The notes below the pieces were generated by a model. It saw only the letters and a program-made list of their open reading frames with translations. It was not told where the DNA came from and made no database searches. A stretch of DNA of 64,000 bases from Octopus sinensis (Eukaryota): NCBI RefSeq assembly GCF_006345805.1, contig NC_043015.1, positions 2,232,001 to 2,296,000 of the forward strand, read 5' to 3'. This document shows positions 15,113 to 46,273 of this stretch, in pieces (position 1 is the first letter of the stretch; every line of letters starts with the position of its first letter). The position numbers and the translations under genes were made by a program.

Positions 15113-15314
15113 TACAACAGAAACAAGAAGAATGAATGGGAGAAAGTGATGTTAAAAGAGTGCAGCAGGATTCGCTACCAACCCCTGCCGGAGCTCCATG
15201 TAGCTTTAGGTGTTTTCGCTTAATAAACACACACAAGATCCGGTCTGGGGGTCGAAATCACGATCCTACGACCACGAATCCGCTGCCGTAACCACTGGGC
15301 TATTGCGCTTCCAC
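15113..15314 (-). mobile_element. SINE family C, 3'-truncated
   Basis: Minus-strand head gtggaagcgcaatagcccagtggttacggcagcgg; body shared with 22783, 37194 and 45976. Confidence 0.85.
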
Positions 15315-21476: not shown

Positions 21477-21686
21477 ACAGTTCTCTATTTAAGAGATGAG
21501 GAATTGTGTACATTATTTACATTGTTTACATTCGACGGATATCTGTCCTCATCTTGTTTGTTGTTAACACAACGTTTCGGCTGATATGCTCTCCAGTCTT
21601 CTTCATGTGTGTCGGGGAAATTTCGAACGTAGGTTCTTATTCCTTAGGTATTTTTCGATGCTGTTGTTGTTATCATCATCATCATC

Positions 21687-21761
<75 letters not shown>

Positions 21762-21836
21762 GTTGTTGTTCGGAATAAATCGAACTCGGGATCTTGTGGT
21801 TAGTATCCCGTGCTCTCAACCACCACGCCATATCCC
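21477..21836 (-). mobile_element. composite element: tRNA-like head + (AAT)n linker + hammerhead-bearing tail
   Basis: Minus: A box tggcgtggtgg (21820-21830), B box gagttcgatt (21778-21787), (AAC/AAT/GAT)n at 21660-21770, then HHR motif at 21567-21612 and an approximately 90-nt tail ending next to (TA)n. Confidence 0.65.
21567..21612 (-). ncRNA. minimal hammerhead motif with loopless palindromic stem III (core damaged)
   Basis: Minus: acac-ATGAAGA-agactg..cagcc-GAAA-cg-TT-gtgt; AACGTT palindrome; C3 is replaced by A. Confidence 0.6.
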
Positions 21837-22782
21837 AGTGGCATATCAACCGAAACATATATCCCCAGAGAGAGAGCGAAAGAGCGAGAGAGTTTATCTT
21901 TTATTTTTTTACGTTTCATTCATTAAACTGTAGCCTTGCTGGGGCACCGACTTAATAGATATAAAGATTTGCGTTTATATCAATTTCTATATAGAGGCAG
22001 ATGCGCATTGAAGTGAAAGATTATTGAATATTTTTTTATAGAGTACATTATTAAAATTTGAGACATGACTGTTGTACGCAAGACGAGAACGATCTTGATG
22101 TCCAACGCATTCTTTATACAGTATAGAGAACACATACATACGCAAGTGGACGGACAGAAACCACGCCCACGCAAACACATAGACATACAGATAACAAAGT
22201 ATACATAATTTGTGATGCAGGCATCACATACACACGGTAGTTACAATTGACATAAAATATTTTCTTTACTAAGAATACTACACATGTTTCTCAAGAGCCT
22301 AGAGAACTGCGGAAAAGTACTTAGGATATAAATAAAGGAAAAACTCAGAAGCAAAAAACTGCTTATACTGGGAAAATAAGGAATATTCGTAAATATTTTG
22401 TGAAATAACCATTAACGTCACATGATGACAGCTAGTAAATTGAAAAACTCAACGGTGCAAAAGAATATCAACCAGTTACGTACGACATTTGGACAAAAAT
22501 TTCTCCTACGTCAATGTATACATATATGCAAAGATGCAAAGATAAATACATGGACACATAAACATGTTTTCTTAAATGCAAACACGCGAGGCAAATAATT
22601 ATATACAGAGAAATAAATAGATATACAAGAGTAAACAAATAATTCAGATGCTTACAAAAGTGTAGGCCTGCCTCACATAATTGTATACATATATACATTC
22701 AAACATGGGTGCGAAGTTCCTTATACACACACATACACACACACACATATATATAGACATATACATATAGCAATGTATGAAT

Positions 22783-25450: not shown

Positions 25451-26303
25451 TACATATATGTGTATGTGAGCGTCTAAGTGTGGGGGATGTCAGGGTGTCT
25501 TTGTGTGTGTGTTTAGCAACACCAATGCTTGTCGACCAGTGTCAGTTTTTTTATGTCCTCTTAACCTAGCATTTTCGCAATTGAGACTGACGGATGGAGT
25601 ACTAGATTTTAAGATAAAATGTATGGTGTCGATTTGTTCTACTAAATCCTTGAACCGCAGCCTAACGAGTAAAAATGTTAAGAGTAAACATGGAAAGAGT
25701 AAACAAATTACTTTTATCAATATTCTGCTATTTACGCAGGTTGGCGGAAAAGTTCATATACTGACTATTTGAAAATGATCCTACAACTGTGAAATATTAC
25801 GTACATTAATTTCAGCCCTTTTATTAATACCTTTTTGAAAAATTCTTTCCAGCAAAACTGACATGCAACAACTGTAACAAATAGTAACTTGTTTTGAAAA
25901 TATGGCAGTGTGATTTTATCAATTACCTGCAGTAAAAAGAACACTCAATGCAAATATGGCTGCTATATTAGAAGATGACGCTCCAGCCTTGACATCAGTG
26001 CAAAGGTGGGCAGAATAATTTAAGAGAGGAAGATAAGAGTCTTAAAGGTCTGGAGGTCCTACAAAAATGCTACTCCCGAGGAAAGAATTGATCGCTTCTC
26101 TACATAGTGATGGATGTCAGGTGATTGACTAAAAATCAAATAACCAATACTGTTGGCTGATCGCGTGTGAGAGTTGGGAATATCACGAACAACGAAGTTA
26201 GCATGGCGATGGTTTGTGCTGTCTGGGTTGAACGTCTTGTGACATATATTCACAAGAGCGACACGCAGATCACATCACTGGAATATCTGAGTAAACGGTA
26301 TTG

Positions 26304-26535
26304 AAGGCGGCGAGCTGGCAGAAACGTTAGCACGCCGGGCGAAATGCTTAGCGGTATTTCGTCTGCGTTACGTTGTGAGTTCAAATTCCACCGAGGTCGA
26401 CTTTGCCTTTCATCCTTTCGGGGTCGATAAATTAAGTACCAGTTACGCACTGGGGTCGATGTAATCGACTTAATACCTATGTCTGTCCTTGTTTGTCCCC
26501 TCTATGTTTAACCCCTTGTGGGTAATAAAGAAATG
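26304..26535 (+). mobile_element. full-length SINE family A, tandem unit 1
   Basis: aaggcggcgagctggcagaaacgttag tRNA-like head, B box gagttcaaattcc, central gcctttcatcctttcggggtcgataaattaagtaccag (resembles the Meta/MESC SINE domain, from recall). Confidence 0.93.
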
Positions 26536-26542
26536 GGTATTG

Positions 26543-26775
26543 AAGGCGGCGAGCTGGCAGAAACGCTAGCGTGCCGGGCGAAATGCTTAGCGGTATTTCG
26601 TCTGGCGCAACGTTGTGAGTTCAAATTGCGCTGAGGTCGACTTTGCCTTTCATCCTTTCGGGGTCGATGAATTAAGTACCAGTTACGCACTGGGGTCGAT
26701 GTAATCGACTTAATACCTATGTCTGTCCGTGGTTGTCCCCTCTGTGTTTAGCCCCTTACGGGTAATAAAGGAATA
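26543..26775 (+). mobile_element. full-length SINE family A, tandem unit 2
   Basis: Head-to-tail copy of unit 1, separated and flanked by ggtattg. Confidence 0.93.
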
Positions 26776-27304
26776 GGTATTGTGCATATTGACTATCTTC
26801 AAAAGGGCGACGCCATTGATGGAGAGTACTAAGCCGACTTGGTGATTCAGTTACAGAAGACTACCAACACCATAGGTGCCCCCACCAAAAAAAAAAAAAA
26901 GAAAAAGGGGGGTGGATTAATCTGATCAGGACAATGCTTCAGTACAGAAATCATTGGTTTCAACAGCGGCTGTACATAACTGACTTTGAAAATGTCGAAC
27001 ACACTACCTGCTTCCTGAATTCGTCATAGCTGAATTTGTTTACATTGCCTGAATTTTTCTTTCATTCATCAGGCTATGAATGTTCAGCTGATCCTCAATT
27101 AACGCCGTTGATTCTCCATTGATTCTTAAATTACATTTGTAGACTTCTATGTATTGTGTATTTACTCCTACGACAATTACAGCCTACTCATTGACCGTTC
27201 TAGCACTCCCGGTTTTATACATTTCAACTCTCATTTCATCATTTTATATTTCTTTAGTCATATTGAATACTTCTGTACATTCCTTCTTATGTTGCTGGTT
27301 CTAT

Positions 27305-30982: not shown

Positions 30983-31490
30983 GCATGTGTGTGTGTGTGT
31001 GTGCGTTCATGTATATATATATACTATATATATATAAAGGCACGAATGTATATTTGTGTGTGTAGCTGTCTGCGTGCGTGTATGACCGGACGCTTACAGG
31101 GAGCACGCATGATGTTTTGTTATTTCGACATTGGTAGAAATAGATATAACATCGACATCCTTGTGAATTCAGTTGTGAATATTTAAAATGAAAGTAGCAT
31201 GCTTATTATTTATTACAAGACATCGAGCAAGACTCTGGAACTTTTTTGCAATCATTGTTTCGAACAAAAATGACAATAATCATATTCAACACAAACACAG
31301 ATATGTAATTAACATTCTATAGAGAGAGAAATAGACAATAGAATACAGATGGTTATTTTACTAATTTCCAAAATGGTAAAACAGAAACCAAGTTACCGAT
31401 ATCGGAATTTGACAAATTGCTACTATGTCGGTGCTCCTATTTTTTATGGAAGTATTGTCGCTAGCCCAAATTTTCCTTGATGATATTCTA

Positions 31491-31707
31491 AGACGGCGAG
31501 CTGGCAGAAACGTTAGCACGCCGGGCGAAATGCGTAGCCGTATTTAATCTGTAGTTACGTTCCGAGTTCAAATTCTGCCGAGGTCGACTTTGCCTTTCAG
31601 CCTTTCGTGATCGATAAATTAAGTACTAGTTACGCACGGGGGTCGATGTAATTGACTTAATCCCTTTGTCTGTCCTTGTTTAGCCCCTTTTGGGTAGTAA
31701 AGAAATG
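31491..31707 (+). mobile_element. SINE family A with 9-bp TSD
   Basis: TSD gatattcta at 31482-31490 and 31708-31716. Confidence 0.92.
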
Positions 31708-37193: not shown

Positions 37194-37509
37194 TCGCCGT
37201 GATCACCGTGACCGACCAAGCTATCAGATGTTGCTACACATCGCAGGTCAAAATGGTCTTCGCATAGTTTTAGCCTTCAAATGACGCCACCCCGCTGGCT
37301 AAGCGAGCAGGCCAACAGAAGAAAGAGTGAGAGAAAGTCGTGGTGAAAGAGTACAGCAGGGATCGCCAACCCCACCCCCCTGCCGGAGCCTGGTGGAGCT
37401 TTAGGTGTTTTCGCTTAATAAACACTCTCAACGCCAGGTCTGGGAATCGCAACCGCGATCCTACGGCCGCGAGACCGCTGCCCTAACCATTGGGCCATTG
37501 CGCCTTCAC
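37194..37509 (-). mobile_element. SINE family C (tail type 2)
   Basis: Same head and body as 22783, but unrelated sequence beyond ...ttcttctgttg. Confidence 0.88.
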
Positions 37510-45975: not shown

Positions 45976-46273
45976 GTGGAGGCACATCGCCTAGTCGTTA
46001 AAGCAGCGGACTCGCGGTCAAAATGTTGCGGGTTCGAATCTCAGACCGGGCAATGTGTGTTTATGAGCGAAACACCTAATGTGCACCCGGCTCCGGCAGA
46101 AGGTAATGGTGAACTTCTGCTAATTTTTTCGCCACGATTTTCTCCCACTTTCCTCCTGCATCTTGCAGCTCACCTGCGACGGACCGGTGTCCCGTCCAGG
46201 TGGGGAACCTATACGCGAAGGAAACCGGGAAACCGGCCCTTAGGAGCCAGACATGTCTCGAGAAGGAACAACC
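45976..46273 (+). mobile_element. SINE family C (tail type 3, V-domain-like)
   Basis: tRNA head with ggttcgaatc; 46173-46200 cctgcgacggaccggtgtcccgtccagg resembles the V-SINE domain CCTGCGATGGACTGGC..CCCGTCCAGG (from recall). Confidence 0.8.

Follow-up and report, generated by a model that had tools for sequence, protein, structure and literature searches.

The composite repeat on the minus strand of the 64,000-nucleotide stretch of Octopus sinensis DNA analysed here (the window) is almost certainly the pLTR of an autonomous retroelement of the Penelope/Poseidon type. We also favour, with less assurance, a fuller reading in which the window holds a solo, decayed pLTR together with about 55 codons of such an element, and in which the element has captured a tRNA-derived head that would likely serve as a Pol III promoter. 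An earlier note on this DNA had proposed a Pol III-transcribed, self-cleaving, non-autonomous SINE mobilised by PLE machinery. Our searches of the 2.72-Gb assembly containing the window bear out a linked unit with Penelope-type mobilisation, but they identify it as an autonomous element's own pLTR and first ~55 codons rather than as a separate SINE. The novelty would lie in the tRNA-derived head of a PLE pLTR, which is missing from the related elements examined.

Every part that had been named before is present on the minus strand where it had been placed (Table 1), including the tRNA-like head with its A box, anticodon-like loop and B box, for the first of which the textbook A-box consensus served as our yardstick. 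Head position +1 falls at 21837, and the head is missing about 13 nt at its 3' end. The linker of ~110 bp comprises 74 nt of pure (AAT)n (21761-21688) with mixed AAC/GAT triplets on either side; across family copies its length spans 4 nt to over 150 nt. ATA stands in place of the start codon (21640-21638), and the frame is interrupted by a stop. As had been reported, the hammerhead has a damaged core, with C3 changed to A at 21606, and we also found a stem-II mismatch at 21597; the predicted cut lies between 21571 and 21570. Poly-A is absent, and the unit's 3' end at 21477 is a 3' end of the family that abuts (TA)n. The echo of the head start described at 21840-21846 is indeed inverted and outside the head, but it is longer than had been seen and matches the stem-II/GAAAC segment of the ribozyme. 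We therefore read it as what remains of an inverted second arm that meets the first head-to-head at the head start, where it overlaps the natural hairpin arm immediately 5' of the head; similar junctions occur at four other loci (L009, L039, L047 and L075). The copy in the window is solo and decayed. Neither ARAGORN nor Rfam, the latter at gathering thresholds, returned anything in the window. Elsewhere in the window, a common interspersed repeat forms a tandem 240-bp pair (26297-26782), and a related copy at ~31477 (about 31470-31525) gives a loose match to the hammerhead pattern that looks incidental.

Table 1. Parts of the family copy in the window (positions are those of the window).
Feature	Position	Strand	Basis or remark
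Inverted second-arm stub	21840..21856	+	Reverse copy of ribozyme stem-II/GAAAC segment, 15/16 match
tRNA-derived pLTR head plus 4 nt of upstream UTR	21778..21841	-	Alignment to L135
Putative Pol III A box	21820..21830	-	Family majority letters match textbook A-box consensus
Anticodon-like loop	21805-21800	-	
Putative Pol III B box	21778..21787	-	Last base damaged in window copy
(AAT)n/(AAC)n/(GAT)n linker	21660..21772	-	
'Spacer': 5' leader and first codons of PLE ORF	21611..21659	-	
Minimal type-I hammerhead, loopless stem III, inside the ORF's first codons	21567..21610	-	
'Tail': further 5' coding region of the ORF, up to the distal family 3' end (long arm)	21477..21566	-	

At several head loci, RT-like ORF fragments lead into the head. 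A search with one such fragment gave 5,262 candidates, and 20 loci were extended (18 of the 30 given, and two other listed matches with long open frames). Nine of these reach the stop codon, and all nine continue through a ~35-nt UTR into the head, eight of them also into the tail. Loci selected by the UTR carried the head in 30/30 and the tail in 28/30 cases, and the tail runs on into the ORF start at 26 of 30 ORF-start loci, some of them duplicated. The order is thus an ORF (RT and a GIY-YIG-type C-terminus), the UTR, the tRNA-like head, (AAT)n and the ORF start with its embedded hammerhead, in a tandem or partial-tandem layout. Three loci (L236, L251, L252) show the series ORF end, UTR, head, AAT, tail and ORF start in tandem, and L123 has the unit ahead of the ORF and its head behind it.

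What had been taken for spacer, ribozyme and tail codes for the first ~55 residues of the protein. In L250, the frame that starts at the spacer ATG stays open for 390 aa and crosses ribozyme, tail and the DKG and YGLPKIHK motifs. The element's N-terminus is 49% identical to that of a full-length relative, P0003 (E 8e-26), which the window translation also matches (43% over 45 aa, E 1.6e-5 among 120 proteins). RVT_1 was matched by L138 (E 3e-10), and among 1,665 homologues of the ORF the best-listed are mostly annotated as RT, with GIY-YIG on three. L139 has no Pfam match of its own, and its C-terminus aligns with the GIY-YIG region of P0064 (42% over 548 aa). The RT-EN linker, whose lack of a Zn finger would set the Penelope/Poseidon clade apart from Neptune/Nematis, has no CxxC in L139, whereas a second PLE family (L461) has a Zn-finger-like linker. 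No intact full-length ORF was seen among 150 displayed matches, the longest stop-free frame being 551 aa, and no relative was found in PDB by sequence. The presence of head and tail after the ORF end, the continuation of the tail into the ORF start, and the homology together identify the feature as the pLTR and ORF start of an autonomous element. The comparison of the tail with autonomous PLE pLTRs that the earlier note had called for thus found the same unit both following and preceding an RT/GIY-YIG ORF, and the tail is a 5' coding region rather than a borrowed PLE end. A 47-nt intron in the tail, which would frame the ribozyme ATG, was considered and dropped because the unspliced frame is conserved in P0003; no splice joint for it was present among the 15/20 joints displayed, at an ORF depth of only ~10-20.

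Genome-wide, exact matches numbered 2,247 for the head 5' motif, 1,651 for head 3', 1,951 for a 35-mer of the ribozyme and 969 for the UTR, and the same motifs read backwards (22-35-mers of head and ribozyme, and the UTR) gave none. Dividing the counts by the exact-match rates in loci chosen by other motifs (17/121, 13/132, 8/136 and 14/34) gives rough totals, with wide error, of ~16,000 heads, ~33,000 ribozyme arms and ~2,400 UTRs. When the first 30 loci selected by the head were examined, 27 had the tail within 700 nt of it (25 of 28 when independent insertions alone are counted), which establishes the predicted linkage across (AAT)n. The CTGATGA question raised earlier was also answered, since the 35-mer matches hold an intact CTGAWGA core, and 49 of 125 unselected arms retain all 13 hammerhead core positions. 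Eight heads without a tail proved to be copies with interruptions or deletions; they share no alternative tail, and none among them was a donor SINE bearing the same head. That a tRNA-derived SINE and a PLE fragment were brought together by chance through the microsatellite has a negligible probability: the (AAT)n linker does receive insertions of other elements (L038, L050, L360, L362), but the tail stands in register at the head-selected loci just given and the head follows at every UTR-selected locus.

The head is tRNA-derived, as had been claimed. It is colinear from end to end with 27 host tRNA sequences (~50-62% identity, z mostly 4-7), and the window head scores 9.1 bits against a tRNA profile compared with a maximum of 4.3 for shuffled sequences; three of four of the family's own ORF-attached heads, like the window copy, fall within 8-15 bits. 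No parent stands out among the 27, Cys, Arg and Thr scoring alike, and a degenerate tRNA-Thr-like motif had 0 matches. With its stems broken, even an intact head reaches no more than 13.3 bits against RF00005; the family preserves the A and B boxes, while the tRNA stems are unpaired. Other tRNA-like stretches in the window, at 15245-15306 (-), 45993-46045 (+) and 37440-37500 (-), score 17.1, 16.6 and 9.5 bits against the host tRNA profile and are probably heads of ordinary SINEs. Elsewhere in the genome, tRNA-Cys-like genes cluster at L217, where 3 kb hold at least seven of them, one having an ACA anticodon.

To examine the distribution of the head we used 80 metagenome loci with 28-48% identity to P0003, a set that leaves out the closest relatives (54-68% identical) and in which several loci share one assembly. 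The ORF end is reached in 39 of these, 30 of which have at least 200 nt behind it. None of the 30 carries a tRNA-like stretch there (best 4.0 bits, against 4.3 for shuffled sequence), although 16 carry a minimal hammerhead. As far as such distant relatives show, the head would therefore be a lineage-specific gain. Since (AAT)n is also the terminus of the genome's RTE LINE, which inserts into the linker, we propose that head and (AAT)n probably arrived together as an RTE-mobilised tRNA retrocopy. This LINE (L464-L466), which from its motifs we take to be of the RTE family, is young, with 51,098 candidates, copies 96-99% identical and frames of up to 1,226 aa; it inserts into (AAT)n generally and into the linker of the present element in L038, L360 and L362. 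Our literature search, which covered sources other than repeat databases, subscription papers and supplements, found no tRNA-headed or Pol III-driven PLE, and the family may already be catalogued under another name.

The mode of insertion was examined in a ribozyme-selected set (90 of the first 92 listed matches of 1,951, all on contig C1). The 3' ends of 137 arms fall at tail positions 181-184 (66) or 137-159 (62), with nine elsewhere, and 42 of 47 head-to-head inverted pairs consist of one long and one short arm. Although the earlier note rightly saw no clear TSD at the window copy, the family does have them, around the whole inverted pair: 9-15 bp in 26 of 46 pairs, against 0.4 (maximum 2) in 300 shuffled pairings, compared with only 2 of 24 when single units were searched. 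Long and short paired arms, two 3' ends and pair-wide TSDs constitute a Penelope signature. The accessible text on PLE insertions (Craig 2021, PMC8557442) likewise describes an inverted, 5'-truncated second copy and a tail at one end only. The element thus combines several EN+ PLE characters: the RT and C-terminal GIY-YIG ORF, tandem-derived pLTRs, a minimal hammerhead and the inverted 5'-truncated second copy. The hammerhead itself resembles those of minimal-hammerhead PLEs (Cervera and De la Pena 2014, PMC4209133) in its loopless stem III and long stem II, and in those elements, too, the motifs are mostly solo or on opposite strands, from truncated copies; as far as the available parts of these two papers go, no tRNA-derived promoter is described. 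Copies of the octopus family differ from column majorities by ~9%, which, on a published scale as partially available to us (JC 0.09 = 25 My, PMC13282606), would date the burst to roughly 20-25 My ago. At one locus (L009:1730-1880), a piece of a third PLE-like ORF with a WFNVPF motif lies beside a family copy.

The closest described system is PAc, the Poseidon element of Anolis carolinensis and an EN+ PLE of the Penelope/Poseidon clade (PMC11167929, as seen in part). The two share a single RT and C-terminal GIY-YIG ORF, a pLTR from tandem arrangement, a hammerhead overlapping the ORF's first codons, and two RT start sites in the ORF start, which in PAc produce a 30-40 bp 'tail', both target strands being extended. 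They differ in that the accessible account of PAc mentions no tRNA-like or Pol III promoter and no pLTR microsatellite, and in that the PAc start codon is an ATG in the ribozyme core, whereas the conserved frame of the octopus element starts ~35 nt earlier. In other organisms P0003, P0120, P0031 and P0071 have a translated hammerhead in their N-termini (TPDDG...PKRCV-like), suggesting that a ribozyme within the ORF is widespread in the clade.

Short copies are far more numerous than ORF-bearing ones, ~7-fold at the head and more than 100-fold in RNA depth at the ORF 5' end; they have SINE anatomy, and Sm-alpha of Schistosoma offers a precedent (PMC6765202, available portion). These points could favour an independent, non-coding Pol III ribozyme SINE that has master copies of its own and depends on a PLE for mobilisation in trans. 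We regard this model as very improbable and largely refuted. The unit does not differ from the autonomous pLTR, it codes for the ORF's N-terminus, and a comparison across 295 arms found non-CpG variants (T/A at ribozyme position 7, two tail substitutions, a 9-nt deletion and head position 64) at like frequency in 48 ORF-attached and 51 head-start arms. Head-start copies also retain UTR bases 5' of the head. From the shared variants and retained UTR bases we conclude that the short copies form no lineage of their own. Since their ends coincide with the RT start sites, they would be missing the downstream RNA (+172) required by the PAc protein according to the part of that report consulted (PMC11167929); by this analogy they are likely dead on arrival. 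Measured against the SINE2 class, the unit does have a tRNA-related head with A and B boxes, but its end is the coding 5' region of a PLE ORF in place of a LINE 3' end or poly-A tail, and its variants are common to ORF-attached pLTRs where SINE2 elements have their own masters. Five loci (L242, L246, L255, L256 and L368) are internally deleted PLE copies that jump from ORF to head or tail, a structure that suggests template switching; such copies possibly seed true non-autonomous derivatives.

Whether the head is used by Pol III is less clear. We consider that it probably acts as the element's promoter, on three lines of sequence evidence: intact boxes, a pile-up of 5' ends and the absence of shared TTTT. 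The Pol III claim of the earlier note would thus stand for the head but not for an independent SINE. Of the 5' ends of 82 head-bearing arms, 36 are spread over 50 nt within the head and 37 lie at -17..+1, and nine arms pass beyond, so that 37 of the 46 arms reaching the head start end there; in an independent, head-selected set 23 of 30 arms stop at -21..+3 and seven pass. Copies that pass the head start extend a median of ~440 nt further. The 5'-end peak at -7..+1 lies 7-15 nt before the A box, the distance at which Pol III initiates on tRNA genes. Transcription by Pol III predicts a sense strand without TTTT, and in an alignment of 355 pieces with at least 23-fold ORF cover we found no TTTT site in more than 8% of copies over 2.78 kb, compared with 29-31 AAAA sites. 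By comparison, TTTT occurs in all 36 related ORFs of at least 1.5 kb (2-28 each), 14-17 times per 3 kb in the second PLE of the same genome (8 expected) and 3 times per 3.2-3.7 kb in the RTE (3 expected). Codon shuffling gave P(0)=0.009 when the codons were the element's own and 0.004-0.057 when they came from other pools.

The principal competitor, which we hold to be unlikely, is that the head is a passenger, an old SINE head in the 3' UTR of an element transcribed by Pol II from an internal promoter or by host read-through, the pile-up being due to cDNA snap-back or annealing at a hairpin. Such a natural hairpin exists at -17..+17 (-12.2 kcal/mol) and coincides with the pile-up, so that snap-back or twin-cDNA annealing could produce the peak with no RNA start. 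Inverted head echoes are frequent, with opposite-strand joints at -8..+1, and by eye about half of the head-start copies carry one. Unused boxes, too, would still be intact in a SINE head captured recently. The evidence from TTTT is modest (P 0.004-0.06): shared GGGG sites are likewise absent, and single fragments of RTE or other ORFs of 0.8-1.2 kb can be TTTT-free. A capped RNA would also solve translation, which for an uncapped Pol III RNA is unexplained. From the accessible literature, the promoter of Penelope is LINE-like and TATA-less (PMC2377424), and Kojima (PMC10886601) argues that autonomous partners must use Pol II. Several points speak against a passenger head: it gives no reason to expect a sense strand that is free of TTTT throughout; about half of the 23 head-start copies, again by eye, have no inverted echo and abut unique or unrelated sequence; stalling at the hairpin should truncate at its 3' base (+10..+17) and not in the loop or 5' arm; and no donor SINE turned up among the tail-less heads. 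RNA-seq from three raw runs of one study (unstranded, fragmented, ~6% read) and one contig set had a depth that mirrors copy number, 94% of tail-stretch reads running into unrelated sequence; in those reads, molecules showed no accumulation of starts or ends at the head or the cut site.

If the head is a promoter, insertion might proceed as follows. By analogy to PAc, the protein would nick both target strands and reverse transcription would start internally at two sites ~125-165 nt into the ORF. An RNA begun at the pLTR promoter would then give only a ~300-nt SINE-like unit, and copies with the ORF would depend on RNA that reads through from a tandem copy upstream. Pol III would start ~6-14 nt upstream of the A box, which we propose as the reason why copy number falls ~7-fold immediately 5' of the head, and it could read the whole 2.8-kb element since the sense strand has no TTTT terminator. 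The ribozyme would cut downstream of the start codon and likely regulate translation or process multimers. It is probably not needed for insertion: the available part of the PAc report has ribozyme mutants still inserting in vitro (PMC11167929), which leaves self-cleavage as the mobilising step unsupported. Transcription of the full coding element by Pol III is a more doubtful proposal than promoter activity of the head. Equally tentative is the wider idea of an autonomous element that has switched to Pol III, with read-through of a terminator-free 2.5-kb RT-endonuclease ORF, translation of uncapped RNA and most transcripts ending as SINE-like by-products.

Three other groups of repeats invite comparison, each known to us from partial text. 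The SINE-like repeats Sm-alpha and Sj-alpha of Schistosoma also have a Pol III-type promoter followed by a hammerhead (PMC6765202), but they are non-coding tandem repeats without an identified autonomous ORF, whereas the octopus unit is part of an autonomous element and direct short tandems are rare, at 1-2 of 90 ribozyme-selected loci. That rarity also separates it from non-LTR retrozymes (bioRxiv 10.64898/2026.07.22.740005), short hammerhead repeats related to PLE pLTRs that are defined by direct tandem monomers each with a ribozyme, and for which the accessible text describes no tRNA head. TRIMp3 elements (Cassandra, Helenus and Ajax; Kojima 2024, PMC10886601) have a Pol III promoter derived from a small RNA in their terminal repeat, retain the boxes while the RNA structure decays, and are proposed to originate from SINE insertion into the repeat. 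They are, however, non-autonomous LTR elements, with true LTRs, PBS and PPT, whose autonomous partners are expected to need Pol II, whereas the octopus promoter candidate sits in the repeat of a protein-coding PLE with a PLE insertion signature. The same genome holds a second, much larger PLE family (L461, G000:C19:26802300-26807300, and L462) with 25,030 candidates, intact frames of 1,008 aa, the Zn-finger-like linker noted above (Neptune-like) and T- and CA-rich 3' ends. Upstream it has a hammerhead-like motif with the core CCGACGA in place of CTGATGA, near which no tRNA-like stretch was found.

The retroelements known to have Pol III promoters are non-coding passengers (SINEs and TRIMp3), and autonomous elements are expected to rely on Pol II. 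If confirmed, a Penelope-type element whose promoter derives from a tRNA and whose ORF is terminator-free would break that expectation, and one element would be both its own LINE and its own SINE, with tens of thousands of by-products. Even if the head is a passenger, the repeat is to be annotated as a PLE and not as a SINE. Sm-alpha-like 'ribozyme SINEs' may likewise be PLE pLTRs, and so may some of the unclassified SINE families of octopus, where 893 of 900 recently active families are unclassified according to the accessible text of PMC13282606. If the promoter reading is true, the head would mark the elusive start site of a PLE, and would make PLE transcription, translation and ribozyme function directly testable.
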